Assembly: GCA_030615855.1 (NCBI GenBank)
Contig: JAUWYL010000001.1
Span: 203,008-252,441 of the forward strand
Source: a bacterium
Lineage (GTDB): Bacteria > UBP18 > UBA7526
DNA length: 49,434 nucleotides
Direction of reading: 5' to 3'
Below, piece by piece: positions 6,219-44,223 of this stretch. The position numbers and the translations under genes were made by a program. The notes beneath the pieces were generated by a model. The model had not been told where the DNA came from and did no database searches. It saw only the letters and a program-made list of their open reading frames with translations. Every line of letters begins with the position of its first letter. The stretch's first letter is position 1.

Positions 6219-6566
6219 ATGACGCGGAGGAGAGCTCAGCGGGCAGGAAGACTTATTCAGGAAGAGATTTCAAAGATCATTCAGAGGGAATTAAAGGATC
6301 CACGGATTGGATTTGTTACTATTACTGGTGTAGATGTTACTGATGATCTCCGCTATGCCAAGGTATTCATCACTGTTTTAAAAAGAGAGGAAAGGGAGAG
6401 GACTCTGGAAGGCCTGGAGCATGCCAAGGGATTTATTCGTAGGGAGATCGGACAGAGAATAAAAATGAAGTTCACTCCAGAGATTGAGTTTAGATTCGAT
6501 GAAACTATAGAGCGTGGAGCACACATAGAGGAAGTAATAAGAAAGATTAAGGAGAAGGAGAAGTGA
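6219..6566 (+). CDS. rbfA: Ribosome-binding factor A
   Basis: KDPRIGFVTITGVDVTDDLRYAKVF, TPEIEFRFD. Confidence 0.97.
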   Translation: MTRRRAQRAGRLIQEEISKIIQRELKDPRIGFVTITGVDVTDDLRYAKVFITVLKREERERTLEGLEHAKGFIRREIGQRIKMKFTPEIEFRFDETIERGAHIEEVIRKIKEKEK

Positions 6567-6567
6567 A

Positions 6568-6676
6568 TCCCGTTAGATGCTGGTCTTTTAATGAAGTGGA
6601 AATAAATGATACATTTAGGATCGCTATTAAAGATATTAGAAAAAGCTATATAACAATATTTGGGAGTCTAACGGGA
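6568..6676. mobile_element. Miniature TIR element (MITE-like), copy 1
   Basis: tcccgttaga ... tctaacggga perfect 10-bp IR, flanked by TGAA direct repeats at 6564-6567 and 6677-6680. Confidence 0.8.
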
Positions 6677-7653
6677 TGAAGGAACTAAAAAAGATTGTCG
6701 AGGTTATCAGAGAGAATAAAAGTTTCTTTATTACTTCTCACATCAGGCCAGATGGGGATTCCATCGGCTCTCAACTTGCCCTGAAGAGGATACTGGAAAG
6801 GTTAGGAAAGGAAGTAATCATCACCAATCATGATCCGGCCCCTAAAATCTACGATTTTCTTCCCGGAAAAGAGAGCATCAAGCAAGAACTACCTAAGAAT
6901 AGAGAGTTCGATGTGGCCTTTATTCTGGATAGCCCAGAGCTCTCTCGTCTGGTGAGCACCGCAGAGATAATCGAGAAAGCAAAGGTCATCGTAAATATCG
7001 ATCACCATCTGGGGAATGAAAAGTTTGGAAAGTATAACTATGTTGATACTGAGGCTTCTGCCGTGGGAGAAGAGATATATGAACTGACAAGAGTAATGGG
7101 GTTTGAGATAGATAGGGAGATTGCCTTATGCCTCTATGTGGGCATCTTTACAGATACCGGTTCCTTCCGGCAGTCAAATACTACCCCTCGTACCCATGAG
7201 ATCGTGGCCCACCTCATGAAGATAGGAGATTTAAAGCCTGCCCAGATCACCCATCAGATATACGGGACCCAGCTTCCTTCTGCCATAAAGTTATTGAGCA
7301 TGACTTTGGATACCTTGGAGAGGAGCGGAGACGGCAGGATAGCTTGGATGACCATTACCGACGAGATGTTCAAAGAGACCGGAACCACCAAGGCGGAGAC
7401 CGAGAACTTCATCAACTATGTTCGTTCTGTGAAAGGAAGCGAGGTGGCCATTCTATTCACTGAGCTTGCTAAGGATGAGGTAAAGGTCAGTTTCCGCTCC
7501 AAGTCTAGTGCCGACGTTAATAGTATAGCCAAAATATTTGGAGGTGGAGGACATCTTCGCGCTTCTGCCTGCACTATAAAGGGAGATTTGGAGGAGGCAA
7601 AGAGGAAGGTGCTGGTTGAGGTAGAGAAGAGACTAAAGAAGGTTTACGGTTGA
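6676..7653 (+). CDS. nrnA: DHH/DHHA1 bifunctional oligoribonuclease / PAP phosphatase
   Basis: HIRPDGDSIGS, IDHH, TDTGSF, GGGGH motifs; typical rbfA-nrnA-truB context. Confidence 0.93.
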   Translation: MKELKKIVEVIRENKSFFITSHIRPDGDSIGSQLALKRILERLGKEVIITNHDPAPKIYDFLPGKESIKQELPKNREFDVAFILDSPELSRLVSTAEIIEKAKVIVNIDHHLGNEKFGKYNYVDTEASAVGEEIYELTRVMGFEIDREIALCLYVGIFTDTGSFRQSNTTPRTHEIVAHLMKIGDLKPAQITHQIYGTQLPSAIKLLSMTLDTLERSGDGRIAWMTITDEMFKETGTTKAETENFINYVRSVKGSEVAILFTELAKDEVKVSFRSKSSADVNSIAKIFGGGGHLRASACTIKGDLEEAKRKVLVEVEKRLKKVYG

Positions 7654-7780
7654 CCGACCCCGATGCTATTGGGGTGCCCGCGGTTGACGGTAAACAGCCC
7701 CGACAGCTGTCGGGACGGGCAAATCGAATAGTAGCTATTCACCAGCGGGGCAAGTAAAACGCGCCGCTCAACGGTAAACG
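7643..7780. repeat. 138-bp multi-hairpin repeat, family A, copy 2 (supplies nrnA stop)
   Basis: Near-identical to 1915-2052; nrnA last codons and TGA (7651-7653) lie inside it. Confidence 0.92.
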
Positions 7781-7786
7781 ATAAGC

Positions 7787-8704
7787 ATGGATGGATTCTT
7801 AAATGTTAATAAGCCGAAGGGCATGACTTCTCACGACGTTGTGGATGAGATAAGGAAGTTGGTGGGAAGGGAGAAAGTGGGGCATGCGGGAACCCTGGAT
7901 CCCGAGGCCACTGGCGTTCTTCCCATCGCCATCGGTAAGGCAACCAAGGTAATCCAGTTTTTGGAAGAAGGAAAAGGATATCGGGCAACCATGAGATTAG
8001 GAATCACCACCGATACCCAGGATATAACAGGTAAGATAATTGCTAAAAGTGATGAGATTAATATCCCAGTAGAAAGGATAAGGGAAGTCTTCAAGAATTT
8101 TTTAGGAAAGATAGAGCAGATTCCACCTATGGTCTCGGCAGTGAAAGTAAGGGGGGAAAGGCTTTATAAGTTAGCCCGGGAAGGGAAGAGAGTGAAAAGG
8201 CCACAGAGAGAGGTTGAAATCTATAATCTCAATCTCTTAGAATACAAACTGCCAGATATCATCTTTAAAGTAAGTTGCTCAAAAGGAACCTACATTAGGA
8301 CCCTCTGTCATGATATGGGAAAAGCCCTGGGTTCTGGGGCCTGCCTGAAAGATCTAGTGCGTACTAAATCAGGTATCTTTACTTTGAAAAAAAGCTATAC
8401 CCTGGAAGAATTGAAGAAACTACCTAATTTAGAAAGATATCTAATGAGTATGGATAAAGCCTTGAGGCATCTGCCGATAGTGAAGGTTAAAGATAGGATA
8501 AGAGAATCTGTTCTCAATGGGGGACCGATAGGAACCTCGGGAATACTGGAATTTTCTTTACCTATCAAGGGAGAGGAATTGGTCAGGGTCCATAATTCAG
8601 AGAAGAGACTCTTAGCAGTCGCCAGAGCACTATTCGATATTGGAGATTTAAAAAGGATAGAGAAAGAGGTTGTGGTCTTCAAACCAGTGAGGGTTATTGG
8701 TTAA
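7787..8704 (+). CDS. truB: tRNA pseudouridine(55) synthase
   Basis: KPKGMTSHDVV, GHAGTLDPEATGVL, QIPPMVSAVK, CSKGTYIRTL. Confidence 0.98.
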   Translation: MDGFLNVNKPKGMTSHDVVDEIRKLVGREKVGHAGTLDPEATGVLPIAIGKATKVIQFLEEGKGYRATMRLGITTDTQDITGKIIAKSDEINIPVERIREVFKNFLGKIEQIPPMVSAVKVRGERLYKLAREGKRVKRPQREVEIYNLNLLEYKLPDIIFKVSCSKGTYIRTLCHDMGKALGSGACLKDLVRTKSGIFTLKKSYTLEELKKLPNLERYLMSMDKALRHLPIVKVKDRIRESVLNGGPIGTSGILEFSLPIKGEELVRVHNSEKRLLAVARALFDIGDLKRIEKEVVVFKPVRVIG

Positions 8705-8706
8705 GA

Positions 8707-9636
8707 ATGGAACTTGTTCTGGGAATTGATAAGATAAGGAAAAGGCATAAGAGAGGGATTCTTGCCCTGGGCACATTTGATGGCCTCCATCTCGGTCATC
8801 AGGGGGTGATCGAATCTCTAAAGAGACGAGCGAAAAGACTGAAGAAGAGATCCATTGTTTTGACCTTTGATATCCATCCCCTAAAAACGATTGATCCAGC
8901 AAAGTGCCCTCCCCTGCTTACCCCAAAGGAGGAGAAGATAAATCTAATTCAAGATCTGGGAATAGATACCCTTGTCCTAACTAATTTTGATAGGAAATTT
9001 GCTTCCCTCTCACCAGAGAAATTCATCAGAGATATTCTGGTCAGTAGATTGGGCGTAAGAGAGATATTCGTGGGAAAGGACTTCACCTTTGGAAGAGGAG
9101 CAACTGGCGATATAACGTTCTTGAGAAGTAAAGCAAAAGAGTATGGCTTCAAGGTCAGGGTCATTCCTCCGGTAAAAATAGGCAAGAAGGTAATAAGTAG
9201 CACAGCAATAAGGGAACTTATTAGAAGAGGGGCGGTTAAGAAAGCGGCAAAACTTCTGGGCCGCCCCTATGCCCTCTATGGCCGAGTAATCCATGGGGAA
9301 TCCCGGGGAAAAGAATTGGGCTATCCTACAGCCAATATAAGGCCTCACTATGAGATGATTCCCTCTGATGGAGTCTATCTAGGGAGGATAAAAGTGAGGG
9401 GAAGGGATCGGGATGGGCTTCTAAATATCGGAACCCAGCCTACCTTCCATAAGCGAGGGGCAAGAATTATTGAGACCTATATCTTTAACTTTAATGGAAG
9501 GATCTATGGCCGGGATATAAAGGTCAGTTTTCTGCAGCGGATACGAGATGAAATCGCCTTTAAAAGCCCAGAAGCCCTCAGAGCCCAGATAAGGAAGGAT
9601 ATTATCAAGGCAAGAAAAATTTTGCATCTCATTTGA
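8707..9636 (+). CDS. ribF: Bifunctional riboflavin kinase / FAD synthetase
   Basis: GTFDGLHLGH, ISSTAIR, GYPTAN, NIGTQPTF motifs. Confidence 0.97.
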   Translation: MELVLGIDKIRKRHKRGILALGTFDGLHLGHQGVIESLKRRAKRLKKRSIVLTFDIHPLKTIDPAKCPPLLTPKEEKINLIQDLGIDTLVLTNFDRKFASLSPEKFIRDILVSRLGVREIFVGKDFTFGRGATGDITFLRSKAKEYGFKVRVIPPVKIGKKVISSTAIRELIRRGAVKKAAKLLGRPYALYGRVIHGESRGKELGYPTANIRPHYEMIPSDGVYLGRIKVRGRDRDGLLNIGTQPTFHKRGARIIETYIFNFNGRIYGRDIKVSFLQRIRDEIAFKSPEALRAQIRKDIIKARKILHLI

Positions 9637-9649
9637 TATGTGTTATAAT
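9622..9649 (+). promoter_or_regulatory. Putative sigma70 promoter for rpsO-pnp
   Basis: TTGCAT (9622-9627), 16 bp, TG-t-TATAAT (9641-9649). Confidence 0.6.
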
Positions 9650-9834
9650 AAAGACGCCTTCGCTTCGCGAAGAACTTTGTTATTCCAGCGCGTCTTTATT
9701 AGACAGGGCAAGTAGAACGCGCTGTTATAATAAGGAAGCCTCCGCTTCCAGCGGAGAACCTTGTTATTCGGGCTTCCTTAGTAGAGGAGGCAAGCCTGCT
9801 TGTCGGCAGACAGGCGAAGCGCGTCGTCATAATA
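9641..9834 (+). repeat. Two tandem 82-nt structured units delimited by (T/C)GT(T/C)ATAATA
   Basis: Unit 1 9641-9722; unit 2 9723-9824 is 82 nt once the 20-nt hairpin 9795-9814 is removed; compensatory stem changes between units. Confidence 0.8.
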
Positions 9835-9846
9835 ATTTAAATATAA

Positions 9847-9896
9847 TGCCGTTGCTGGGAGAATCGCCTCCCCACCGATTCTCTCGGCAATTGGCA
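9847..9896 (+). promoter_or_regulatory. Structured rpsO leader, candidate S15 autoregulatory RNA
   Basis: Long hairpin tgcc-gttgc-tgggagaatcg...cgattctctcg-gcaat-tggca just upstream of the rpsO RBS; S15 leaders are known in many phyla. Confidence 0.55.
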
Positions 9897-9921
9897 GCGA
9901 GTAAGAAAGGGGGAAATGAAA

Positions 9922-10191
9922 ATGGTCTTGGAGAAGGAAAAGAAGAAAGAGATTATCTCTAAGTACCGGTTGAATGAGAAGGATACTGGCTCACCAGAGG
10001 TTCAGATCGCCCTGCTAACGGAGAGGATTAATTCCTTGACCGAGCACCTTGAGACCCATAAGAAGGACCATCACTCACGAAGAGGGCTTTTAAAGATGGT
10101 TGGCCAGAGGAGAAGACTGTTGGGTTACCTTAAGGATAAGGATAAGAAAAGATACGAGAAGATTATCCAGGAACTGGGTTTGAGAAAATGA
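9922..10191 (+). CDS. rpsO: 30S ribosomal protein S15
   Basis: [38 protein letters not shown] 9922 preferred over 9916 from SD spacing. Confidence 0.99.
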
Positions 10192-10194
10192 TTG

Positions 10195-10282
10195 GCGCCA
10201 AGTCGCCAAAGAAATCACCAAGTCGCCAAATTTTGGCGCCTTTGCGGATCTTTTGTGTTTTAGCGTTTAGCGTTTTGGCGTT
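10195..10282. repeat. Degenerate CGCCAA/TTGGCG palindromic element (period about 8)
   Basis: cgccaagt cgccaaag ... caccaagt cgccaaat then tttggcg, tttgcg, tttagcg, tttagcg, ttttggcg. Confidence 0.7.
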
Positions 10283-10297
10283 ACGAAAGGAGAAGAG

Positions 10298-12400: not shown

Positions 12401-12409
12401 TCAATAGCA

Positions 12410-12540
12410 GCCACAGGTTACGTAGTTGGGTTAGGGTAAGGTAGTGGGTTTGGTAGTTTGGTAAGGGTTAGGTGTTTTTTTTAAAAAGACCAACTACCTA
12501 ACCCAACAGCTAAACTAACAACCTGACCTTAACCTTGGCC
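12410..12540. repeat. G-rich/C-rich degenerate palindrome (GGTTAG-like units)
   Basis: gttgggttagggtaaggtagt... then a T8/A5 centre, then ...actacctaacccaac...accttaacc. Confidence 0.7.
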
Positions 12541-12561
12541 AAATCTTATTAAGGAGTGAGC

Positions 12562-13374: not shown

Positions 13375-13448
13375 AAGTTGATACGTTAATAAGTAAATAA
13401 GAAATAAAATTTTGCCCAATACGCGTTAAACAAATTTTTGGAGGCTTT

Positions 13449-13673: not shown

Positions 13674-13727
13674 GACATATAGAAACGAAAGAATCTACTA
13701 GGAAGATTCAAAGCCAGTGAGGTTAAT

Positions 13728-16157: not shown

Positions 16158-16177
16158 TATTAAAGTGAGGCAGAAAC

Positions 16178-16831
16178 GTGGAGCCCATTGGTCTTACTCT
16201 GCAGCAGACGAGGCAGAAGAAACGATTAAAATTAGAGACGATAAGTAAGAAGACAAAGATAAGTATAAAATATCTCAAAGCCCTGGAAGCAGAGGACTGG
16301 GATGTTTTTCCGGCACCTGCCTATACCCAGGCCTTCCTGCGCAGTTATGCCAACTTCTTAAATCTGGATAGCGATGAATTAGTTCGAGAGTATAAGAAAT
16401 ATTTAGAGACAACCACCAAAGTTCCAGTAGCAGAGAGATTAATTCCAAAAAGAATAAGACCTAAAAGACTAACCATTCTTCCCATAGCAATAAGTATAAT
16501 AGTTCTCATCGTTTGGGGAGGGTGGTTTCTTTTCTTTCGCCCCCCTTCTCTACCAGTAGTTGAGGTTACCGAGGAGAAGAAAGCCCCTCTTACCCTGAAA
16601 ACAACCGCACTCGAAGAGGTCTGGGTGAGTATTACTGTTGATGGAAGAGAAGAGATTCAAGAACTATTGAAGGCTGGAGATGAAAAGACCTGGGAAGCGG
16701 AGAATAAACTCGAGATAAGAGTGGGGAATGCCGGGGGAATAAAGTTGGAGTTGAATGGAGAACCCCTTGGGTCCCCAGGCGAGAGGGGACAGGTAGTAAC
16801 GAAAACCTTTGTGAGAGAAAAAGAAGAATGA
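16178..16831 (+). CDS. rodZ: RodZ-like protein (HTH_25, TM helix, DUF4115)
   Basis: TKISIKYLKALEAE...FLRSYANFL HTH, one TM helix, VGNAGG..L.LNG C-terminus; follows ftsK. Confidence 0.85.
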   Translation: MEPIGLTLQQTRQKKRLKLETISKKTKISIKYLKALEAEDWDVFPAPAYTQAFLRSYANFLNLDSDELVREYKKYLETTTKVPVAERLIPKRIRPKRLTILPIAISIIVLIVWGGWFLFFRPPSLPVVEVTEEKKAPLTLKTTALEEVWVSITVDGREEIQELLKAGDEKTWEAENKLEIRVGNAGGIKLELNGEPLGSPGERGQVVTKTFVREKEE

Positions 16832-17733
16832 CCATTACTGAAGCAATTAAAGAAGGATTCAAGACCACCTATCGCAACTGGCCCCTGATCCTGATTCAGT
16901 TTGTAATTCAGATAATTCTGGGACTTTTATTCATCGTTCCTGTTTTGTTCATTCTCTTTTCCTTGGGATTCTATGCTGGGCTAACCAAGGGAGAGTTTAG
17001 TCTGGAGTTATTTCAGCAGGGTCTCCGCGCCCATCCTTTGTTAATCGTAATCTGTGGCCTCTTCTTCCTTCTCATCTGGATAGGGGCCATACTATTGGGC
17101 ATCTTCTTAAAGGGTGGGATAAAGGGGATATTTAGAGATGCTTTGATAAAGAAAGAGAAGTTTACTTTGAGAAGATTCTTTCGTTATGGAGGTTATTTCT
17201 TCAAACGCCTATTTCTCCTCTGGCTTCTCTTCTTCCTGGCTTTCCATATTCTCTTTCTAACCCTGGGTGGAATATTCGGCCTTCCCGTCTATCTTCTCAT
17301 TCAGAAGTGTCAAGAGGCAGGGATGGTCTTTGGGGTTCTTCTGGGAATCTTGGGCTTTTTTTTACTCCTCCTTGCAAGCCTTACCCTGGGTCTTGTCTTT
17401 TCCTACTCTGGAATAGTAATCGTTGTTGAGGATTCCATTCTAAAGAGAGCAGTCAAGAAGGCTTTTTCTTTTATCAGGAGAAATCTCGGTCCGGTTCTAG
17501 GCCTCTTCTTCCTTTTCATCCTGATCGGCATAGGCGTCATAGGTGTCTTTATCTCGTTTGACCTTCTTTTGAAGATTCCGGCCTCCATTCCAGGAATAGG
17601 AGCAGGGATGCTCATTTTTCTCTTACCCCTTCGCTTCCTTTTAAATTTTGTTCAGAGTGGGGCTCAGATCTATCTCACTCTTTTCACTATTGCTTCTACT
17701 ATGGCCCTCTATCTGAGTTTAAGTAAAAAGTAA
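16828..17733 (+). CDS. Hypothetical multi-pass membrane protein
   Basis: 301 aa, several hydrophobic helices, ATGA overlap with rodZ. Confidence 0.75.
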   Translation: MTITEAIKEGFKTTYRNWPLILIQFVIQIILGLLFIVPVLFILFSLGFYAGLTKGEFSLELFQQGLRAHPLLIVICGLFFLLIWIGAILLGIFLKGGIKGIFRDALIKKEKFTLRRFFRYGGYFFKRLFLLWLLFFLAFHILFLTLGGIFGLPVYLLIQKCQEAGMVFGVLLGILGFFLLLLASLTLGLVFSYSGIVIVVEDSILKRAVKKAFSFIRRNLGPVLGLFFLFILIGIGVIGVFISFDLLLKIPASIPGIGAGMLIFLLPLRFLLNFVQSGAQIYLTLFTIASTMALYLSLSKK

Positions 17734-18375: not shown

Positions 18376-18831
18376 ATGAAGTGGCTGATTAAGTTTCTGG
18401 CAACGGGATTCTATACTGGTTATACCCCCATTGCTCCAGGAACCGCAGGAAGCCTCATTGGGGTTATCATCTATCTCGGGATGTATAGGCTTTCTTGGCC
18501 TCTTTATCTTTTAATTCTTATCGTTCTTTCTCTTTTTGGAATATGTATTTCAAATAAAGCGACCATCTACTTCTTCAAAGAGAAGGATAGCAAGAGGATT
18601 GTCATTGATGAGATCATTGGCTTCCTGATCGCCATGTTCTTAATTCCCTTCAAGCTTAAATTCATCCTTGTGGCTTTCATTGTCTTTCGGGTGATTGATA
18701 TCTTGAAGCCCTTCCCCTTAAGAAGGTTGGAGAAGCTACCTGGTGGTTGGGGAGTGATGTGTGATGACCTCTTAGCCGGGGTCTATGCTAATCTAATCGT
18801 GCAAGCAATTAGATTAGCGAGTTTACAGTAA
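18376..18831 (+). CDS. pgpA: Phosphatidylglycerophosphatase A
   Basis: APGTAGS, IVIDEIIG, FRVIDILKPFP, GVMCDDLLAG. Confidence 0.95.
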   Translation: MKWLIKFLATGFYTGYTPIAPGTAGSLIGVIIYLGMYRLSWPLYLLILIVLSLFGICISNKATIYFFKEKDSKRIVIDEIIGFLIAMFLIPFKLKFILVAFIVFRVIDILKPFPLRRLEKLPGGWGVMCDDLLAGVYANLIVQAIRLASLQ

Positions 18832-19016
18832 CCAGCGAACAGTAACCAGAAAAACCACAGAATATCAGTATATCAGAACATCAGAATGAGAATTCAGAAT
18901 ACCAGATTTAATTTTATAATCTGACTTTCTGATAACTGACCTTCTCTATCTGGTAATCTGGTTATCTGATGCTCTTTTATTTTTTGCTGTTAACTGTAAA
19001 CTGGTTACTGGTTACT
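18821..19016. repeat. Family B palindromic element, inverted relative to 44491-44696
   Basis: Roughly 90% identical by eye to the reverse complement of 44491-44696; supplies the pgpA stop. Confidence 0.9.
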
Positions 19017-19047
19017 TCAGGATACACTGGTTACTTTGAGGTAGATA

Positions 19048-28624: not shown

Positions 28625-29322
28625 AGACTATGGTCATCATCCCCACCTATAATGAGAGGGAGAACATCGGCCCCTTGCTTGATGAAATTATGAACCTTAA
28701 AGAAAATATCGAGGCTCTGGTGGTAGATGATAACTCTCCGGATGGCACTTGGAGAATAGTAGGAAATTATTCTAAGAAAAACCCTAGAGTTCATCTCTTA
28801 CGGAGAACCTCTGAGAGAGGACGGGGCCTGGCAGGAATAGCAGGATTTAAGTATGCTTTGGAGAATAAAGCAGATTATGTCATTGAGATGGATGGTGATC
28901 TTTCCCACAATCCAAAGTATATCCCAGAGTTCTTGAAAAAGATTGAGGATTGCGATGTAGTCATCGGCTCTCGTCTTCTTCCCGGTGGAGGGGAGGTGGG
29001 AAGAGGGTTTTTAAGGCGTCTAATCACCAGGCTGGCTGCCATCTACGTTAGGATTTTATTAGGATTCAAGGTTACAGATCCTACCTCCGGCTACCGTTGT
29101 TATCGGGGAGAAGTCCTAAGGGCTATAGATATTAAAAGCCTAAAGGCCAGGGATCCTTTCCTCCTCTCTGAGATGCTCCTCAGGTGCTATAAGAAAAGCT
29201 ATAGAATTAAAGAAATCCCCATCCTCTTTCAAAATCGGAAATCCGGTGCTTCTAAGATCGGCTGGAAAATCTTGATAACCTATCTCTTCAAGGTCCTAAA
29301 GTTGAGAGTTAGAGGGAAGTGA
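28621..29322 (+). CDS. Polyprenol monophosphate glycosyltransferase (GT2, Dpm1-like)
   Basis: IIPTYNERENI, VDDNSPDGT, EMDGDLSH, DPTSGYR. Confidence 0.9.
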   Translation: MKTMVIIPTYNERENIGPLLDEIMNLKENIEALVVDDNSPDGTWRIVGNYSKKNPRVHLLRRTSERGRGLAGIAGFKYALENKADYVIEMDGDLSHNPKYIPEFLKKIEDCDVVIGSRLLPGGGEVGRGFLRRLITRLAAIYVRILLGFKVTDPTSGYRCYRGEVLRAIDIKSLKARDPFLLSEMLLRCYKKSYRIKEIPILFQNRKSGASKIGWKILITYLFKVLKLRVRGK

Positions 29323-30494
29323 GTATCCCGATCTTAATGTATCATCATGTAAACCCCGTTAGAAGTCCTCGTTGCAAACGAGGCATCCGTCCCCTTCGGG
29401 GTCGGATTACTTCTAACGGGGTAAATGAACTCCCAGATAGTTTTACTATTTCTCCAGATGATTTCCAGAGTCAAATGGAGTACTTAGCAAAAAAAAATTA
29501 CCAGACCCTCTTTCTGGATGAGTTAATTAATTCTTTAAAAGAGAGAAAAGAGAAGAGAAAGGTAGCCCTTACCTTTGATGATGGTTATCTTGATAACTGG
29601 GTCTATGCCTACCCCATCCTGAAGAAGTATAATCTAAGAGCAACCGTCTTTGTCATTACCTCTCGCATTAAAGAGAAGCCTATCTCCTATCGCCCTAACT
29701 TAGAAAATCTCTGGAAGAGGAAAGTTAAGAAAGAAGGGCTTCCCAGGATTTCTAATCACTATCAGAGTAATCTAAGATGTGTCAGGAATCTTGAAGGTTC
29801 AGATGATCATATTACCTGGGAAGAAGCGAAGAAGATGTCTCGAAGCGGTCTGATAGATATCCAGTCCCACAGTTATTTACACAGCTACTGTTATGTAAGT
29901 GATAAGATAGTCGATTATTATCGAGGACATAAGTGGCGCACGGGCTGGCTTACAGATGGAGATACAAGATTAGGCATCCCGATATATGAGGATAAGCCAG
30001 CCCTTGCTGGGCAAAGATATTTTGATGATCAGGACTTAAGAAATAGACTGGCAGAATACGTTTCCCAAAGAGGGGAAGGAAAATTCTTTGAAAAGGAGGA
30101 TTGGAAGAAGGAATTGGATGGGATAGTAGATGATTATCGGGTGCAAAATGAACTAAAAGATAATTATGAAACTTTAAAAGAGAGAGGGAAGCGAGTCAAA
30201 AGCGAGTTATTACTATCTAAAAATATTGTCGAAGAAAAACTAAATAAAGAATGTAACTTCATCGCCTGGCCAGGAGGGGCATACGATAGTTATTTAGTTA
30301 AGTGGGCTAGGGAGTGTGGCTATCAAGGAGCAGTAACTACCCAGCCAGGAGCGAATACTTCTAATACCAACCCTATGTATCTCAAGAGGTTTGAGATTAA
30401 GAGAAGGGATCTTGGCTGGTTTAAGAAAAGGCTTTTCATTTACTCCCATAATTTCACGGCCCGATTTTACCCCAAGATAAAGGGGTTATTTTAA
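29319..30494 (+). CDS. Polysaccharide deacetylase (CE4) carrying a 24-aa in-frame insertion
   Basis: IPILMYHHV, LTFDDGYLDN, IQSHSYLH, AWPGG motifs. Confidence 0.9.
   Translation: MSIPILMYHHVNPVRSPRCKRGIRPLRGRITSNGVNELPDSFTISPDDFQSQMEYLAKKNYQTLFLDELINSLKERKEKRKVALTFDDGYLDNWVYAYPILKKYNLRATVFVITSRIKEKPISYRPNLENLWKRKVKKEGLPRISNHYQSNLRCVRNLEGSDDHITWEEAKKMSRSGLIDIQSHSYLHSYCYVSDKIVDYYRGHKWRTGWLTDGDTRLGIPIYEDKPALAGQRYFDDQDLRNRLAEYVSQRGEGKFFEKEDWKKELDGIVDDYRVQNELKDNYETLKERGKRVKSELLLSKNIVEEKLNKECNFIAWPGGAYDSYLVKWARECGYQGAVTTQPGANTSNTNPMYLKRFEIKRRDLGWFKKRLFIYSHNFTARFYPKIKGLF
29354..29421. mobile_element. Miniature TIR element, copy inserted in frame in the deacetylase
   Basis: ccccgttagaagt ... acttctaacgggg perfect 13-bp IR; TAAA direct repeats at 29350-29353 and 29422-29425; 68+4 = 72 nt. 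Confidence 0.9.
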
Positions 30495-33233: not shown

Positions 33234-33285
33234 AATTATCTCCTTAAAAAATAGATCAAAATATTTGAACCTAAAATACGAACTC

Positions 33286-33314: not shown

Positions 33315-33333
33315 TCTTTTGAAAAAAGTAAGC

Positions 33334-34612: not shown

Positions 34613-34625
34613 TAAGGAGAGAAGC

Positions 34626-35750: not shown

Positions 35751-35751
35751 G

Positions 35752-38039: not shown

Positions 38040-38048
38040 GGAAGGCAG

Positions 38049-39167
38049 ATGAGTAGATATAATTTTAGCGAAGAGTTAAAGAATTTAAAAATTGGGATTA
38101 TTCGCCGTAGTCCACCGGATTCTACTGGTGAGACCTTTTCTTCTGAACTTTTTTTTCACCTGAAAGATAGATTAGATGTTGAGCAGGTAATATGTGGCTG
38201 GGATAGGCGATGTCGGGAGATTGATCGAAAGAGGCCAGCGAGCATAGTAATAACTTACCGTAATAAACGCCTGAGAGATAGACAACTGCTTTCCCAAATG
38301 CCCCACTATGACCTTTACCATTTCCACTTTCCAGTCTTCGCTTCCCTAATTAAATATAGAAGGCCGGCCATTGTTACGGTGCACGATCTCATTCCCCTTC
38401 GCTTTCCTCATCTCTATTCTCGTACCCGACGGAAATTAACTAAAAAGAGACTTATCTATTCCAGTAGGGCCGATTGCATCATTGCTGTTTCTCAGTCTAC
38501 TAAGGAGGACTTAGTCCAATTGTTGAATATTAATCCAGAAAAGATCACTGTTATTTATCATGGGGTCAATCATAAAATATACCAGCCGAGAGCCAAAGAC
38601 CAGGCAAGAAAGGCCTTGGGTTTATCCCAAGAGAAAAGAATTCTTCTAAATATGGGTACAGAAAGTTTGAATAAGAATATAGAAAGATTAATTCGGGCAT
38701 TTTATCGTTTAACGAAGAGATTTACAGATCTAATACTTATTCGGGTAGGGTCAACTTCAGAATCGGTGACTCACTTGATAAATGAACTAAAGATAGGCGA
38801 TAAGGTATTAAGGAAAGGATTTATAGAAAGACACTTTAATCTCTATTATAACGCAGCCGATCTATACATCTGTCCTGAGATATTGGGAGGATTCGGCCTA
38901 CCCAACTTAGAGGCCATGGCCAGTGGTTGTCCGGTAATTTCCTCAGATGCCGGGTCTTTCCCGGAAGTAGCAAGAGATGCGGGACTATTCTTTAATCCCT
39001 GGGATGAAGAGGATATCTTTGAAAAGACCGCCCTCCTGTTAGAGAATAGTAAGTTGCGGGGAGAATACGCACAAAAAGGCCTGAAGCGAGCAAAACTATT
39101 CAGTTGGAAGAAAGCGGCTGAGGAAACTATAAAGGTCTATGCCCAAGTAGTCAGAGAATATTATTAA
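38049..39167 (+). CDS. Glycosyltransferase family 4, paralog B1
   Basis: TVHDLIP, AVSQSTKEDL, KNIERL, GFGLPNLEAMASG. Confidence 0.9.
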   Translation: MSRYNFSEELKNLKIGIIRRSPPDSTGETFSSELFFHLKDRLDVEQVICGWDRRCREIDRKRPASIVITYRNKRLRDRQLLSQMPHYDLYHFHFPVFASLIKYRRPAIVTVHDLIPLRFPHLYSRTRRKLTKKRLIYSSRADCIIAVSQSTKEDLVQLLNINPEKITVIYHGVNHKIYQPRAKDQARKALGLSQEKRILLNMGTESLNKNIERLIRAFYRLTKRFTDLILIRVGSTSESVTHLINELKIGDKVLRKGFIERHFNLYYNAADLYICPEILGGFGLPNLEAMASGCPVISSDAGSFPEVARDAGLFFNPWDEEDIFEKTALLLENSKLRGEYAQKGLKRAKLFSWKKAAEETIKVYAQVVREYY

Positions 39168-39168
39168 G

Positions 39169-40254
39169 ATGAAAATTCTCTTAGCGACCAATGGCTTTTT
39201 ACCTGAGATAGGAGGAGTTCAAACCTACTGTTATCAATTAGCAAAGAACCTTTTTTCTTTGGGGGAAGAAATCATTGTCTTAGCTCCGAAAACCGAAGGG
39301 GATGCGGATTTTAATAAGAAGGAGAGGTTTAAGATAATCAGGACTAAGAAGAAGGTTTGTTCCCGGTTGGCTTTCCTTTTTCTATTAAAAAGAGAAAGAA
39401 TAGGAAAAATATTGGTGGGTCATGGCTCACATTATGTTCGTTTAGCTTCTTTAGCAAACCGTCTTTTTAAAATTCCCTATGATATTATCATTCATTTGGA
39501 AGAGATTCTTCCTTTAGAAAGAAAAAAGATTATTCAGAAAAGTTTCAAAAGAGCCGACAAAATCATCACAGTCAGCCACTTCGCAAAAAAGAAATTGGTG
39601 GAGATTGGCATTCCAGAGAGTAAGATTGTAGTCATCCATCCCGGAGTAGATCCAGAAAAATTTCGTCCTAAACCCGAACCTTCCCCAATTAGAAAGCGAT
39701 ATCGCTTAGAAAAGAAAAAGGTTATTTTAACTATCTCCCGCTTAGGCGAACATAAAGGTCATGCTAATGTTATTCGTGCCCTCCCTCAGGTATTAGAAAA
39801 AATACCTGAAAGCGTCTATTTGGTGGTGGGTTCAGGCGAGAAGGAAGATAGATTAAAAGGACTGGTGAAGGAATTAGGGCTGGAAGATAAGGTGATCTTC
39901 ACTGGTGAAGTGGAAGAAGAGGAGCTTCCTCTATATTACGCTGCCTGTGATGTTTTCATTATGCCCAGTGATGTGGAGGGATTTGGCATCGTTTTTTTAG
40001 AAGCGGGAGCCTCGGGCAAACCCGTCATTGGAGGAAAGACCGGAGGAATTTCTGATGCTATCACCGATGGAGAGACTGGTTTACTGGTAGATCCGTTAAG
40101 CGTTAACCAAATTACTGAAGCACTAATAAAATTGCTCACCAATCCTGAATCTGCCCGAAAACTGGGAGAAAAAGGGAGAGAAAAAGTGGAAAAGGAATTT
40201 AACTGGCAGGAGATAGCAGAAAAGGTTAAAGGAATAATCCATGAGAAAGGCTAG
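39169..40254 (+). CDS. Glycosyltransferase family 4 (PimB-like), paralog A2
   Basis: GGVQTYCYQLAKNL, EHKGH, VEGFGIVFLEAGASG; collinear with 36942-38039. Confidence 0.92.
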   Translation: MKILLATNGFLPEIGGVQTYCYQLAKNLFSLGEEIIVLAPKTEGDADFNKKERFKIIRTKKKVCSRLAFLFLLKRERIGKILVGHGSHYVRLASLANRLFKIPYDIIIHLEEILPLERKKIIQKSFKRADKIITVSHFAKKKLVEIGIPESKIVVIHPGVDPEKFRPKPEPSPIRKRYRLEKKKVILTISRLGEHKGHANVIRALPQVLEKIPESVYLVVGSGEKEDRLKGLVKELGLEDKVIFTGEVEEEELPLYYAACDVFIMPSDVEGFGIVFLEAGASGKPVIGGKTGGISDAITDGETGLLVDPLSVNQITEALIKLLTNPESARKLGEKGREKVEKEFNWQEIAEKVKGIIHEKG

Positions 40255-41188
40255 TATTATCATCTCCAACTGGAATGGCAAGAATCTACTGAAGGAGAAT
40301 CTGCCCAGTGTGATCAAGGCTATCAAGTATAGCGGCGGGAATCATGAGTTAATTGTGGTTGACGATGCCAGTTCAGATGGGAGTCCAGAGTTTATAAAGA
40401 AGAATTATCCTCAAGTAAAGCTAATTGAGCTGGAGGAGAATAAAGGATTTGGGAAAGCGAACAATATTGCTATCTCAAAAAGCAAAAACGACGTCATCGT
40501 TCTTTTGAATACCGATATGTCTATCAAGAAGGATTACTTCTCTTTTGTCCTTTCCCATTTTGACGATGAAAATATCTTCGCTGTTACCCCTAAGATGATT
40601 ACGGAAGATATCTTCCGTAAGAAATTTAAAGTCACTATCTCCTGCTGGGCAAAGTTTAGGCATGGCTTCTGGCACTTTATAGAGATTCGTGACTTGAGAG
40701 ACGAAGAAGGTCACCGTATTGTCCTTACTGTGCCCGGAGGAGGAGTAGCCTTTGACAAGAAAAAATTTCTTTCTCTAGGCGGTTTTGACAGTCTCTATTA
40801 TCCCTTTTACTATGAGGATACTGACCTCTCTTATCGTGCCTGGAAGAGGGGCTGGAAGATTATTTATGAACCAACTACGCTAGTATACCATAGATGCAGC
40901 ATGACCATTGGTGAACACTTTGGGGAGTATGCTTCTCTCATTGAGATGAAGAACTACTATCTTTTCATGTGGAAGAATATTACAGATAGCCACCTGATCC
41001 TGAAGCATCTCTTAATTCTTCCCTTTCACCTTCTAATTAAATTATTGGGAGGTAGATGGATCTGGGTCAAGGGCTTCTTTTTGGCCTTGAAGCAGCTGAG
41101 AGAAGTATTAGCCCGGAGAAAGGTAGTAAAAAAAGAGAGCATCCTTTCAGATCGTAAGGTCTTAGACCTCTTTAAGAAGAGGAGATAA
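40241..41188 (+). CDS. Glycosyltransferase family 2
   Basis: IIISNWNG, VDDASSDGS, NKGFGKANN, LLNTD, YYEDTDL. Confidence 0.92.
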   Translation: MRKASIIISNWNGKNLLKENLPSVIKAIKYSGGNHELIVVDDASSDGSPEFIKKNYPQVKLIELEENKGFGKANNIAISKSKNDVIVLLNTDMSIKKDYFSFVLSHFDDENIFAVTPKMITEDIFRKKFKVTISCWAKFRHGFWHFIEIRDLRDEEGHRIVLTVPGGGVAFDKKKFLSLGGFDSLYYPFYYEDTDLSYRAWKRGWKIIYEPTTLVYHRCSMTIGEHFGEYASLIEMKNYYLFMWKNITDSHLILKHLLILPFHLLIKLLGGRWIWVKGFFLALKQLREVLARRKVVKKESILSDRKVLDLFKKRR

Positions 41189-41189
41189 G

Positions 41190-42320
41190 ATGAGATTAAA
41201 CAATTTGACAATTGGGATCATCAGGGATGGTCCTCCGGGCTGTTCGGGAGGAGTTATTTCTCGAGAGTTATTTCTAAACTTAAAAGATAATCTAAACATA
41301 GAAGAAGTGATGTGTATTCGGCTCAGGGAGAGCCGCAAGATCAGATGGAATACTCCTCCTACGAGAATAATAACCTATCGTACCAAACATTTGAGAGACT
41401 CTCAGCTATTATGGAAGTTGCCTCGTTATGACCTCTATCATTTTCAAAGCCATATCTTCTTCAGCCTCATTAAACATAGAAGGCCAGCCATAGCTACGGC
41501 GATTGACCTCATTCCTTTAAAGAGCGGTCTCTATTCTGACACCCATCTTGAGGCAGTAAGGAGGTCTTTTCAATTCTTTAGGGAGGCAGAGCACATCATT
41601 GCTATATCTCAGAGTACCAAAAAAGACCTGATTGAACTACTGAATATCGATTCAGAGAAAATAGAGGTTATCTACCTCGGAGTAAATTATAAGATATATA
41701 AGGCGAGGAATAAGGAAGAAGTGAGGAGAAAATTGAACCTGCCTTTAGATAAAGAAATCCTGCTCAATGTAGGCACCGAAAACGAGAATAAGAATATAGA
41801 GAGATTAATCAGAGTATTTTATCGTTTACAGAAAAGATTCAAAGACCTCATGCTTATCAGGGTAGGTTTGATCTCAGATTCCATAACTAAGTTAGTAGAC
41901 GAGTTAAAACTAAATGATAGGGTACTGAGAGTAGGATTTATAGAAGGCTACCCTAATCTCTATTATAATGCGGTAGATGTTTATGTCTGCGCTGATTTAT
42001 TGGGAGGTTTTGGATTACCTAATCTGGAGGCTATGGCCAGTGGTTGTCCAGTAGCTACCTCAGGGAGCAGTGCCTTTCCTGAGGTGGTAGGGAATGCTGG
42101 ATTACTTTTCAATCCTCAGGATGAAGATGATGTCTTTGAGAAAATAGCTACTCTGTTAGAGGATAGTAGGTTACGGGAAAAATATGCTCAAAAAGGTCTT
42201 GAGAGAGCAAAATTATTTAGTTGGAAGAAAATGGCTCAGAAGACTATAAAGGTTTATGCCAGAGTGGCCAGAGAATACTATGGGAAGAATATCATCATTC
42301 CAAAAGATGAAAAAGAATGA
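41190..42320 (+). CDS. Glycosyltransferase family 4, paralog B2
   Basis: Collinear with 38049-39167; GFGLPNLEAMASG. Confidence 0.9.
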   Translation: MRLNNLTIGIIRDGPPGCSGGVISRELFLNLKDNLNIEEVMCIRLRESRKIRWNTPPTRIITYRTKHLRDSQLLWKLPRYDLYHFQSHIFFSLIKHRRPAIATAIDLIPLKSGLYSDTHLEAVRRSFQFFREAEHIIAISQSTKKDLIELLNIDSEKIEVIYLGVNYKIYKARNKEEVRRKLNLPLDKEILLNVGTENENKNIERLIRVFYRLQKRFKDLMLIRVGLISDSITKLVDELKLNDRVLRVGFIEGYPNLYYNAVDVYVCADLLGGFGLPNLEAMASGCPVATSGSSAFPEVVGNAGLLFNPQDEDDVFEKIATLLEDSRLREKYAQKGLERAKLFSWKKMAQKTIKVYARVAREYYGKNIIIPKDEKE

Positions 42321-43297
42321 AGATCATCTTAGCTGGTCCATTAGATAAACCTTCTTCTACCGTCTCTTTTATGAAGAAGACTTTGGAGAAATTAGGGCAA
42401 GAAATAGTACCTTTTGATTATCGTAAGGAGCGGGAGAAATATGGCAATGAAAGAATGCAGCAGGAGATGATCGATCTAACAAAAGAAAAGAAACCAGATA
42501 TCTTCTTATTATTAAAAGGGGATGGAATTTTCCCTGAGACGTTAGAGGACATTAAGAAGACCTGTCATGTTGCCTTTCGCTATATGGATTCTCCAATCAA
42601 AGGATGGATAGTTAGATTGGCAAGAGCCTCTGATTCCTTTTTCCTTACTGCTGGAGGATTAATTGAAAAGTATAGGCGTTTAGGAGTCAAAAATGTCTTT
42701 CATCTCTGGGAGGGATGTGATCCGGAAGTTCATAGATATCTTCCTTCAGATTCTCCGGAGTATCAATGTGAGGTGGCTTTCATTGGAGTGGGTAAAGTAG
42801 GGAGAGAAAGTCTTTTAAAGAAGGTTATGAAGGCTGGTTGTGATTTAAAGATCTGGGGCCGCGATTGGCCGCACGGTTTTCCGGTCCAGAAGGAATGGGT
42901 CGAGCCCGAGGAGTTTGCTAAAGTTTGCTCTAGTGCTAAGATTGTCTTAGGACTAAACGATAATAATACCATTCCCGACTATTTTTCTGATCGGACATTC
43001 TTGACCTTAGCCTGCAGAGGATTCCACATCACCTCCTATGCTCCTCGGTTAGAGAGATGGTTCACAAATAAGAAGCATTTAGTCTGGTATAATACAAGAA
43101 AGAAATATCCATGGTCCAATAGATATGCAGAATGTATCGATCTCATTAAATATTATCTGAATAAGCCAGAAGAGAGGGAAAGAATCGCTCGGGCTGGTCA
43201 GGAATGGGTCTATTCCCATTACACCTGGCGCCACTCTATGGAAAAGATGGTTAAGATTTTAGGAGAATTAATTGGCAAAGAGAGATGTCTAGAATAG
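42317..43297 (+). CDS. CgeB-like glycosyltransferase (GT-B)
   Basis: FIG...R, SAKIVLG...FSDRTF..LACRGF, YYLNKPEERERIARAG...HYTW. Confidence 0.8.
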   Translation: MKIILAGPLDKPSSTVSFMKKTLEKLGQEIVPFDYRKEREKYGNERMQQEMIDLTKEKKPDIFLLLKGDGIFPETLEDIKKTCHVAFRYMDSPIKGWIVRLARASDSFFLTAGGLIEKYRRLGVKNVFHLWEGCDPEVHRYLPSDSPEYQCEVAFIGVGKVGRESLLKKVMKAGCDLKIWGRDWPHGFPVQKEWVEPEEFAKVCSSAKIVLGLNDNNTIPDYFSDRTFLTLACRGFHITSYAPRLERWFTNKKHLVWYNTRKKYPWSNRYAECIDLIKYYLNKPEERERIARAGQEWVYSHYTWRHSMEKMVKILGELIGKERCLE

Positions 43298-43845
43298 CAG
43301 TCTTTATAGATCGGGATGGAACGATTATAGAGGAATTGGAATATTTAAAGGATCTAGAGAGGATTAGACTTATACCCCATTCAGCAGATGCTATTAGATC
43401 ATTAAATGAAAGAGAGATATTGGCCATCATTGTTTCCAACCAAGCAGGAGTAGCACGAGGCTATTTCTTAGAAGAGACTGTTAGGAAGATAAATGAGAGG
43501 TTAGAAGAACTCCTAAGTAAAGAAGGAGCACACTTAGATGCAATCTATTATTGTCCACATCATCCAGAGTTTGGTTCACCTGAGTATAGGAAGGACTGTA
43601 ACTGCCGAAAACCAAAACCAGGCATGTTATGGAAATCAGCTAAAAAGTTTCATTTAAACCTGAAGGATTGTTATGTAATCGGGGATAGAGCAGATGATAT
43701 TCGATTGGCGCAAAATGGGGGCGCAAAAGGGATATTGGTATTAACCGGATATGGCCAGAAGGCCAAAGAAGAGATAAAGCCAGATCATATGGCTAAAGAC
43801 TTATATCAAGCAGTTAGATGGATATTAGAAGAGTGTGGACAGTGA
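43285..43845 (+). CDS. gmhB: D-glycero-D-manno-heptose 1,7-bisphosphate phosphatase
   Basis: FIDRDGT, VSNQAGVARG, YCPHHP...CNCRKPKPGM, IGDRADD. Confidence 0.94.
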   Translation: MSRIAVFIDRDGTIIEELEYLKDLERIRLIPHSADAIRSLNEREILAIIVSNQAGVARGYFLEETVRKINERLEELLSKEGAHLDAIYYCPHHPEFGSPEYRKDCNCRKPKPGMLWKSAKKFHLNLKDCYVIGDRADDIRLAQNGGAKGILVLTGYGQKAKEEIKPDHMAKDLYQAVRWILEECGQ

Positions 43846-43905
43846 GCAGATGGACAGGTGGGAGAATGAGCAAGTAAAAAAGGAGGAAAAAGGGGAAGTT
43901 ATGAA

Positions 43906-44017
43906 TCCCGTTAGACCTTTCTAAAGTCTAACGGGATTAAATCGGAAAATTTTGGAATATGCCAAGTAAGTTATCTTTTTATACTCTTTACTCGTAAACT
44001 AAGGAGGTCTAACGGGA
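43906..44017. mobile_element. Miniature TIR element, copy upstream of the DUF4254 N-half gene
   Basis: tcccgttagacc ... ggtctaacggga perfect 12-bp IR; TGAA direct repeats at 43902-43905 and 44018-44021; extra right end at 43926-43936. Confidence 0.85.
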
Positions 44018-44223
44018 TGAAAAAGACATTTGCTCAACTGGTGAATGAGTTAACAAAGGTAAATATTGCATTATGGCATGAGGAAGATAAGGCGAGAAGT
44101 GAAGATGATAAAGTTGTGGCTCAGGCGAAGAGAGAAATTGATAGATTGAATCAGAGAAGGAACGATCTCATTGAGGCTATTGATGAATATGCTATTACCT
44201 TGAGCAAGGGGAGAAATAAATAA
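44017..44223 (+). CDS. DUF4254-like protein, N-terminal half
   Basis: LWHEEDKAR...[19 protein letters not shown] resembles the DUF4254 N-region (recognised from memory). Confidence 0.7.

Follow-up and report, generated by a model that had tools for sequence, protein, structure and literature searches.

Three short repeats with matching inverted ends lie among the genes of one bacterial contig, two of them on start codons and one inside a reading frame, which raises the question of what these repeats are and how they can occupy such positions and leave the genes readable. The stretch of DNA analysed, referred to here as the window, is 49,434 nucleotides long. Re-reading of the sequence gave the three copies as they had been reported in a preliminary description, with perfect ends of 10–13 bp and flanking TGAA, TAAA and TGAA repeats, at the following positions.

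6564..6567, + strand: left TGAA duplication of copy 1, taking in the TGA stop of rbfA and the TG of the old GTG start (6563-6565)
6568..6676, + strand: copy 1, 109 bp, ends TCCCGTTAGA / TCTAACGGGA
6677..6680, + strand: right TGAA duplication of copy 1
29350..29353, + strand: left TAAA duplication of copy 2
29354..29421, + strand: copy 2, 68 bp, two-hairpin type
29422..29425, + strand: right TAAA duplication of copy 2
43902..43905, + strand: left TGAA duplication of copy 3 (old ATG = 43901-43903)
43906..44017, + strand: copy 3, 112 bp, ends TCCCGTTAGACCT / AGGTCTAACGGGA
43906..43936, + strand: 31-bp mini-copy forming the left part of copy 3, consisting of two ends with 11 bp between them and followed by TTAA
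44018..44021, + strand: right TGAA duplication of copy 3

The three repeats are copies of a small mobile MITE-like element with the ends YCCCGTTAGA...TCTAACGGGR. The perfect terminal inverted repeats comprise 10 bp in copy 1 and 13 bp in each of copies 2 and 3; an alternative count of 11, 14, and 14 bp is reached because the A...T of the flanking duplications also pairs. Copy 1 carries GGGAG just inside its right end, and its final base, A, together with the following TG forms a new ATG (6676-6678) for the DHH/DHHA1 gene (6676-7653), while the ORF from the old GTG (6563-6679) crosses the element and ends at a TGA overlapping this new ATG. Copy 3 is built in the same manner, with GGAGG abutting the right end and the final A plus TG giving the ATG (44017-44019) of a DUF4254 N-terminal ORF (44017-44223). 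Copy 2 lies in frame (68 + 4 = 72) in a polysaccharide deacetylase gene (29319-30494), to which it adds 24 codons encoding NPVRSPRCKRGIRPLRGRITSNGV, and has a predicted fold of -42.1 kcal/mol (z -7.7). The earlier reading, in which two copies regenerate a start codon and one is in frame within a coding sequence, was therefore borne out, as was the absence of a transposase from the window, with none found among the 45 window ORFs scanned. The interiors had been called unrelated, which holds among the three window copies but not beyond them: the interior of copy 1 has 73–80% matches to copies in genomes G004 and G005, copy 2 has a 96% match to G004:C189, and copy 3 contains the nested mini-copy.

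Within the window, CCCGTTAGA occurs seven times against 0.35 expected, a number reached in none of 100 shuffles; with one mismatch allowed there was no excess in the window (10 matches against 8.7 expected). Genome-wide, the single 9-mer was mildly enriched only (45 against 32 for the reversed control), and the paired-end pattern was specific (11 against 0). An unbiased scan of the same genome for any 4-bp direct repeat adjoining any 12-bp inverted repeat returned 91 matches, 44 of which begin with YCCCG, the leading duplications being TTCA (17), TGAA (11), TCAA (5), and TAAA (5). Thus the further copies that had been predicted were found both by pattern searches and by a scan that presupposed neither end. 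A sister family, with the ends YCCCGCNCCT and identical duplications, is commoner than the first family in this genome and within the sample is found only in this phylum; its end AAAGGTGCGGGR is itself Shine-Dalgarno (SD)-like.

Paired ends were present in all six genomes of this small phylum, which are draft MAGs of 53–94% completeness, and in 3 of the 35 other genomes sampled. Scanning of species genomes brought up at least 120 stretches with the family, in Patescibacteria, Planctomycetota, Omnitrophota, and others, and the family also occurs on eight viral contigs; the 10-bp end is shared by Patescibacteria, Planctomycetota, Omnitrophota, Cloacimonadota, Nitrospirota, and viral contigs. Across genomes the copies measure 29–281 bp and contain no transposase ORF, within the length typical of MITEs (below ~500 bp), and they have the terminal inverted repeats of MITEs (among 87 copies from other phyla, 51 have C..G and 30 have T..A termini), a target duplication of fixed 4-bp length, dispersed copies, and variable presence among relatives. 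The 4-bp duplication is exact in 8 of 12 copies of this family and 35 of 50 of the sister family in the window's own genome, in 8 of 15 copies in G004, and in 40 of 87 in other phyla, leaving 4, 15, 7, and 47 copies, respectively, without an exact duplication. A recurring class of copies has TTYA at one flank and TRAA or CAAG at the other. Copies in G012 and G015 obey the same rules. The smallest, the mini-copies of 29–32 bp, consist of two 11-bp arms and a 7–10-bp spacer. The 'variable cargo' first proposed for the interiors is better described as many subfamilies, with occasional tRNA genes between the ends, in two phyla. Candidate copies interrupting tRNA genes in arrays were rejected, as the two halves tried do not pair, and an ARAGORN 'intron' in tRNA-Arg was rejected as an artefact.

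As predicted, relatives have empty sites holding one TRAA, which demonstrates insertion. The site of copy 2 is empty, with a single GTGAAY, in five of five relatives, and that of copy 3 is empty in both of the relatives having both flanks (G002 and G004), the empty sites retaining one copy of the 4 bp. In an alignment of 15 deacetylase homologues, 12 lack an insert of 22–26 residues and three carry one at the same site. Moreover, the net 72 bp are missing from a contig of a second sample, and a twin of copy 2 (96% identity) was found at a different locus in another genus, where the flanking genes are ~81–82% identical.

The target is R|TNAA, or more broadly TNNA in other phyla, which refines the TRAA preference described at first. 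A purine precedes the duplication in 42 of 42 cases in the window's own genome and in 75 of 80 elsewhere. The frequent duplications are TGAA/TTCA, TCAA/TTGA, and TAAA/TTTA, with TTAA rare, and the flanking 4 bp differ between copies (TGAA, TAAA, TCAA, TCCA, and TCTA) and are identical on both sides of one copy. After in silico removal of the element, an RTG that opens an ORF of ≥60 codons lies at the insertion point in 25 of 30 TGAA/TGAG cases; for comparison, RTGAA sites genome-wide comprise 590 that are start-like, 982 other non-coding-like, and 4669 coding. An SD-like sequence is located within or beside the right end of the start-codon copies.

Copies within genes have lengths that are multiples of three and read PVR...SNG. 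The peptide xPVR...SNGx is read by the four in-gene copies of G000 and by L001, L002, L009, and L013 of G004, as well as by L008 and L014 of G004, which lie near starts. In 30 two-hairpin copies tallied by hand, the core length is a multiple of three in every case, and this is retained even between genes (L003–L005 of G004), which makes selection after insertion an insufficient explanation by itself. There is no general length rule, since the 87 copies from other phyla fall into the three classes of length mod 3 as 40/30/17.

Taken together, these data make it probable that the repeats are non-autonomous MITEs served by a transposase supplied in trans. The reading as a non-autonomous element with terminal inverted repeats, already put forward in the preliminary description, is supported by the further copies, by the empty sites, and by the lack of a transposase in window or genome. 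In such a mechanism, ends of ~10–13 bp (YCCCGTTAGA...TCTAACGGGR) would suffice for an element, which the enzyme, acting in trans, would insert at R|TNAA through cuts staggered by 4 bp. As RTGAA is a start codon followed by AA and the element ends in a purine, an insertion at a start leaves the old RTG on its left side and builds a new RTG on its right side; many copies also have SD-like bases, GGAGG or GGGAG, next to the right end, and the rebuilt starts are presumably those in use. Within genes, only one frame avoids the TAG and TAA of the ends, and the frame is kept only if (L+4) is divisible by three; consequently, the surviving in-gene copies add a short PVR...SNG peptide. The present pattern would then reflect a preferred target together with the sieving of insertions by selection in a compact genome.

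A bolder extension, which we regard as possible but doubtful, is that the elements form a many-phylum superfamily of 'self-neutralising' transposons, whose ends have been shaped for harmless insertion: the terminal purine would rebuild the start, the end or adjoining sequence would act as a ribosome-binding site, the PVR...SNG frame would be free of stops, and the two-hairpin subfamily would be held to multiples of three. Such elements might be mobilised by an unrecognised class of transposase or by a conserved host enzyme, might move between phyla, possibly on phages, and may have been adopted as translational-coupling switches and carriers of tRNA genes.

The putative enzyme is most likely a DDE transposase. 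Profile searches covered 41 genomes with PF01609, PF13701, and PF13843 and the six phylum genomes with PF00665, PF01797, and PF07282. No match to DDE_Tnp_1, DDE_Tnp_1_4 (IS1380-type), or DDE_Tnp_1_7 (piggyBac) was found in the six genomes, and none to DDE_Tnp_1_7 above the cut-off in all 41; DDE_Tnp_1_4 was matched among the 35 other genomes only in G015 (a 60-residue fragment below the cut-off), G023, and G032. Y1_Tnp was likewise found in none of the six and TnpB gave one sub-threshold match there, whereas rve revealed only an IS481-like gene and broken IS3 and ISL3 genes. The IS481-like gene (G004:C132) was rejected as a partner, its sole visible end not being CCCG. In G012, a weak DDE_Tnp_1 match adjoins a copy. 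No autonomous partner with the same ends was found in G000 at spacings of up to 4 kb, and the long copies enclosing a recombinase that had been envisaged did not appear: in 204 loci no end pair encloses an ORF, and all long end pairs (up to 5 kb) proved to be two separate short copies. Among 910 ORFs adjoining copies there was no recurrent transposase-like protein, the clusters being housekeeping families only. As the phylum drafts are 53–94% complete, the absence of a transposase is weak evidence.

IS1380 elements have CC ends and 4–5-bp duplications, and piggyBac has CCC...GGG ends and a strict TTAA target duplication. The present ends, YCCCG...CGGGR, and the TNAA duplication resemble both, and the CC terminus and 4–5-bp duplication of IS1380 are found here; in contrast, the six phylum genomes contain no such transposase and, unlike that of piggyBac, the target is not restricted to TTAA. 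Three IS1380-like copies in G032, checked against the CC-end rule, had no clear ends. An IS1380- or piggyBac-like enzyme is thus a lead only, suggested by the style of the ends and duplications.

The classical bacterial MITEs include Correia, Nezha, and Chunjie. In the portion of PMC10969869 drawn upon, such MITEs are small, non-coding, multi-copy elements with terminal inverted repeats and target duplications, variably present and sometimes located in genes or altering expression. Compared with Correia/NEMIS, ERIC, BOX, RUP, Nezha, and Chunjie, the present element has a different end sequence, the R|TNAA target, a terminal purine that rebuilds starts, SD-like bases in or beside the end, and many unrelated interiors on one end pair, with no known parent insertion sequence. 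In searches of article text, the end sequence was met only as primers and no described IS or MITE with these ends was found. The Rickettsia palindromic elements (RPEs) are, according to the same portion of PMC10969869, short palindromic mobile repeats of ~150 bp that insert in frame in unrelated protein-coding genes, contribute a tolerated peptide, and are described only in Rickettsia. The present elements also insert in frame into protein-coding genes but, compared by description, differ in their size of 29–281 bp, their occurrence in many phyla, their 4-bp duplication at R|TNAA, and their location mostly on rebuilt start codons.

Other routes to the same pattern were weighed. Movement as single-stranded hairpins by a Y1 HUH enzyme (RAYT or IS200/IS605 TnpA), in the manner of REPINs or PATEs, would turn the apparent duplication into a fixed cleavage tetranucleotide. 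Like REPs and REPINs, the elements form hairpins whose ends are conserved and whose middle varies, have a high copy number for the genome size, and appear to be mobilised in trans; the two-hairpin type folds very stably, hairpin sequences differ among copies while pairing persists, and many copies lack an exact duplication. We nonetheless consider this route unlikely, as the 4-bp flanks vary between copies and match within a copy, which fits a true duplication, the empty sites hold a single 4 bp, and no Y1 gene occurs in the six phylum genomes. REPs are not known to have a target duplication. Furthermore, REPs carry GTAG or CGTC tags (as given in the part of PMC3733652 used here), whereas the YCCCG ends have neither. 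The 29–32-bp mini-copies resemble the core sites of recombinases, elements are common in tiny genomes with few insertion sequences, and tRNA genes lie between ends in two phyla, all of which would suit modules of a site-specific recombinase (Xer-like tyrosine or serine) acting on joined ends (TCTAACGGGR-TNAA-YCCCGTTAGA) and crossing over within the 4 bp. This is very improbable given a target of only five degenerate bases, far below known recombinase site needs, arms that are 40–130 bp apart in most copies, and no recombinase gene linked to copies among the 910 neighbouring ORFs. In the hairpin of an integron attC site, RYYYAAC lies 5' and GTTRRRY lies 3', and the resemblance to integron core sites noted at first fails on orientation, with GTTAGA first and TCTAAC last on both strands, the opposite order.

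Selection for a host-useful regulatory RNA, which would be compatible with transposition, could also drive the spread: the end stem would hide the new SD, and translation would begin only once ribosomes from the old start had opened the stem. The SD-like bases in or beside the end stem of copies 1 and 3 are consistent with this, as are the old-GTG ORF of copy 1, stopping at the new ATG, the ATGA overlap between the stop of the old-start ORF and the new ATG in 8 of 10 start-codon copies of the window's own genome with (L+4) mod 3 = 2, and a viral contig on which several genes each have a copy at the start. Against it, start-codon copies show no preference of length class (5/8/7 in the sister family), orthologues work without the element, and no Rfam family was matched in the window at the gathering score, with only chance-level matches around copy 2 (E ≥ 0.56); as the driving force, such control seems improbable. 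Least credible, to the point of being barely tenable, is intron-like removal from RNA, which would make a copy in a gene or tRNA region harmless in any frame. Copies do lie within and beside tRNA gene arrays, and a genome of 93.6% completeness yielded only 25 tRNA genes, but every in-gene copy keeps the frame and uses the stop-free one, a constraint that would be needless if they were spliced out, and no ribozyme or intron family was matched. Insertion of a MITE at R|TNAA by a transposase acting in trans thus remains the preferred reading.

The elements show how a mobile element can colonise compact genomes of 1.1–1.4 Mb and leave genes intact, either by landing on and rebuilding start codons or by adding a tolerated peptide; the same apparently holds for the still smaller Patescibacteria genomes. 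Annotated gene starts are shifted by the insertions, short ORFs arise upstream, and proteins gain 22–46 residues, so that recognising the elements would benefit gene calling and comparative work on uncultivated lineages. The 10-bp end common to several phyla and viral contigs marks an exchange of DNA across phylum boundaries and also points to a transposase yet to be found; once the enzyme is known, the short end pair and defined 5-bp target could become a useful tool. G015 contains, in addition, a second MITE with CCCGAAAAATGC ends and TTAA or TAAA duplications. The 24 matches in this genome were rejected as independent insertions, most being one copy carried in a 325-bp MITE.

The elements with YCCCGTTAGA...TCTAACGGGR ends (the TTAGA family) make up a MITE family with ends shaped for restoring start codons and for being translated. 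The sequence readout agrees with the preliminary description on the positions, ends and 4-bp duplications of three copies in the window, and a 31-bp mini-copy is nested at the start of copy 3.

TTAGA-family elements in the window, with flanking duplications
6568–6676: copy 1, beside rbfA and the DHH/DHHA1 gene nrnA, TGAA-TCCCGTTAGA...TCTAACGGGA-TGAA
29354–29421: copy 2, in a polysaccharide deacetylase gene, TAAA-CCCCGTTAGAAGT...ACTTCTAACGGGG-TAAA
43906–44017: copy 3, at a DUF4254 gene, TGAA-TCCCGTTAGACCT...AGGTCTAACGGGA-TGAA
43906–43936: nested mini-copy, 31 bp, start of copy 3

The window contains the terminal 9-mer CCCGTTAGA seven times (0.35 expected), a count reached in none of 100 shuffles; if one mismatch is tolerated, the excess in the window disappears (10 observed, 8.7 expected). 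Across the genome the 9-mer by itself shows only slight enrichment (45 versus 32 in the reversed control), and it is the paired-end pattern that is specific (11 versus 0 in the control). The surrounding draft genome (1.375 Mb in 45 contigs, 44% GC, 93.6% completeness) has its best matches among sequencing runs labelled marine sediment metagenome. The genes of the window have ordinary housekeeping and envelope-sugar functions, and no transposase was found among the 45 window ORFs scanned, in line with the preliminary description. One ORF of 301 residues (16828–17730) has no Pfam match at an E-value of 1e-8.

Further copies were anticipated elsewhere in the genome, and pairing of ends with at most one mismatch yields about 20, which group into subfamilies with common interiors. 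When this genome was scanned without bias for 12-bp inverted repeats of any sequence next to a 4-bp direct repeat of any sequence, 91 hits came up; 44 begin with YCCCG, and the leading duplications were TTCA (17), TGAA (11), TCAA (5) and TAAA (5). The scan also brought out a sister family with YCCCGC(A/C/T)CCT(T/C) ends and the same duplications (TGAA/TTCA/TCAA), for example at C9:4158–4293, C34:3293–3339 and C30:196176–196225, all outside the window. The sister family is the commoner of the two, with 50 pairs against 12 of the TTAGA family, and exact 4-bp duplications flank 35/50 and 8/12 of these pairs, respectively. The genome is rich in other short dispersed repeats, with 1203 self-matches 80 bp or more in length. 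One of about 190–200 bp, with GTTTACAGTAACCAG... ends and ATCAGA-type short repeats in its interior, lies at window 44496–44696 and 18826–19018 and on contigs C14, C27, C35 and others, and its contig depth in the metagenome is very high. Another, a GC-rich, hairpin-bearing intergenic repeat (TTTACGGTTGACCGACCCCGATGC...CAACGGTAAAC), is found at 1915–2052 and 7643–7780 with 94% identity between the two, and has more copies elsewhere in the genome.

When each duplication was oriented as TNAA and the preceding base was scored, that base was a purine in 42/42 cases in this genome and in 75/80 cases in other genomes, where some loci overlap and the 80 are not all independent. No constraint was detected at any other position of the target alignment. 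Duplications in other phyla also include TCCA, TCTA and TAGA, giving TNNA as the general form. Around half of the copies outside the host genome lack an exact duplication, and one flank class, mostly with CCCCGTTAGAT ends, pairs TTYA at one flank with TRAA or CAAG at the opposite flank; inversion between copies could be the source of the TTYA...TRAA flanks, and would not account for CAAG.

Empty sites with a single duplication had been predicted, and were found for two of the three window copies. At the site of copy 2, the deacetylase gene of all five relatives lacks the 72 bp and reads a single GTGAAY, and a contig from a second sample lacks a net 72 bp there. Twelve of 15 aligned deacetylase homologues read YHH|VNELKD with no insert, and in the remaining three that point is occupied by inserts with common NPV(R/G)S...TSNGV ends and differing middles. 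The site of copy 3 reads ATGAAG or GTGAAG, once only, in two genomes of the same phylum (G002 and G004). No clean empty site for copy 1 was present among the relatives compared: the rbfA–nrnA junction (window 6548–6700 against loci L042–L045) holds other, unrelated repeat-like DNA of 135, 179 and 205 bp in G001, G002 and G005, respectively, and a remnant-like 46 bp in G003. From these alignments the junction looks like an insertion hot spot with a different insert in each species. Copy 2 shares 96% identity with a G004 copy at another locus, where the flanking genes are 81–82% identical, which suggests either that the element spread recently or that a master copy is conserved.

The regeneration of start codons put forward in the preliminary description is borne out by the anatomy of the junction. 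As the terminal base of the element is A or G, the right junction always reads RTG-AA. The 30 elements of the host genome with a TGAA or TGAG duplication were each removed in silico. In 25/30 the RTG left at the site opens an ORF 60 or more codons long, with at most 27 codons open upstream in 23 of these 25; the other five elements lie in short ORFs, two of them nested within other copies. In a crude map of the RTGAA sites of the whole genome (n = 6241), 590 are start-like, 982 other non-coding-like and 4669 coding. Start codons are thus over-represented among the insertions, even when only sites outside genes are considered. The sister family shares this habit. An SD-like GGGAG or GGAGG adjoins the right end of copies 1 and 3, and the sister family has an end that is SD-like in its own right (AAAGGTGCGGGR or GGAGGGGCGGGR).

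The duplication of copy 1 also contains the stop codon of rbfA, and an ORF from the old GTG crosses the element and ends at a TGA overlapping the new ATG. Such an ATGA overlap occurs in 8/10 start-codon copies in which (L+4) mod 3 = 2, where L is the element length. The length classes of start-codon copies are about equal (5/8/7 in the sister family), hence coupling of this kind is no general rule. The rebuilt TGAA is itself a landing site for new copies, giving rise to nests such as C2:14587–14831. Next to copy 3, the DUF4254 family is represented by two abutting ORFs (44017–44223 and 44223–44486, with a TAATG overlap) matching profile positions 2–59 and 73–144; the same split is seen in G004, where 153 bp of repeat-rich DNA separates the halves.

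Inside genes the ends present a TAG in one frame and a TAA in one frame, and the two stops share a frame whenever (L+4) is divisible by 3. Every in-gene copy examined, four in the host genome and, in G004, four well inside genes and two close to starts, reads through as xPVR...SNGx, in keeping with the in-frame insertion described for copy 2. In the two-hairpin subfamily of the TTAGA family, to which copy 2 belongs (predicted fold −42 kcal/mol, z −7.7), the core is 60, 63, 66, 69, 72 or 78 nt long in 30/30 copies by hand tally. This rule is kept even in intergenic copies beside tRNA genes, and is consequently a property of the subfamily and not a copy-by-copy filter. Sorted by length mod 3, the 87 copies read in other phyla split 40/30/17.

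The anatomy of the elements fits transposition in which an enzyme needing only the 10–13-bp ends would cut the target with a 4-bp stagger. To our knowledge, IS1380 is the only prokaryotic family in the ISfinder summary with CC ends and 4–5-bp duplications; it is related to piggyBac, which has CCC ends and TTAA. We infer an enzyme of the DDE type. The rival explanations are that the elements move by HUH hairpin transposition or by site-specific recombination, that their role is mainly regulatory, or that they are removed from RNA. A search with six Pfam transposase families gave no partner for the elements. Long copies enclosing an enzyme gene, as envisaged earlier, did not materialize, with no long end pairs found in the host genome or at the 204 loci searched, and the genes adjoining copies include no recurrent neighbour. 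The phylum genomes are all incomplete drafts, making this absence weak evidence.

In keeping with the earlier failure to match the ends to a described IS or MITE family, a literature search for the literal ends returned only unrelated primers, and literature on MITEs together with in-frame insertion, start codons or these phyla yielded no description of the family. The nearest analogue in behaviour is the Rickettsia palindromic element (reviewed in PMC10969869). The family is distinctive in its unusually wide phyletic spread and in having no known transposase.

Paired TTAGA ends occur in 9/41 sampled genomes, namely the six of the phylum (the only species genomes of the phylum in the collection, from a single family) and three from other phyla. 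The sister family is restricted to the six, with 4–53 matches each, and the other genomes of the sample have at most one each, the control level. A scan of species genomes gave at least 120 stretches with TTAGA-family ends, whose taxa were taken from record titles. Among the matches listed are many Patescibacteria groups; Pirellulales, Phycisphaerae and other Planctomycetota; Omnitrophota, Cloacimonadota, Deltaproteobacteria, Nitrospirota, Nitrospinota, WOR-3 and KSB1; Bacteroidales and Gammaproteobacteria MAGs; and one Paenibacillus isolate. The 87 copies from other phyla, in 80 loci from these stretches, have termini C..G in 51 and T..A in 30, with an exact 4-bp duplication in 40. Eight viral contigs bear copies, and on some of them several genes each have a copy at the start. 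Most matches in G015, a genome from a distant phylum, are one 94-bp CCCGTTAGA copy carried as a passenger in a 325-bp MITE, which makes a third element built in the same style.

Positions of the 325-bp MITE
L035 (G015:C24), about 590–915 of the oriented segment, and also L026, L031 and L036: ends CCCGAAAAATGC...GCATTTTTCGGG, TTAA or TAAA duplications

In three cases a whole tRNA gene lies directly between inverted ends, and the first two copies listed here are flanked by CTTG and TGAA.

tRNA genes between inverted ends
L080 (G004:C142), 209–317: tRNA-Val
L136, 4972–5059: Saccharibacteria contig
G004:C25:9201–9303: sister family

In the host genome, rated 93.6% complete, ARAGORN recovers only 25 tRNA genes, and several tRNA arrays are interleaved with the repeats. 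Outside the window, at G000:C44:40490–40800 of this genome, ARAGORN places a tRNA-Asn(GTT) with a 236-nt insertion in the anticodon loop, which may be a group I intron.
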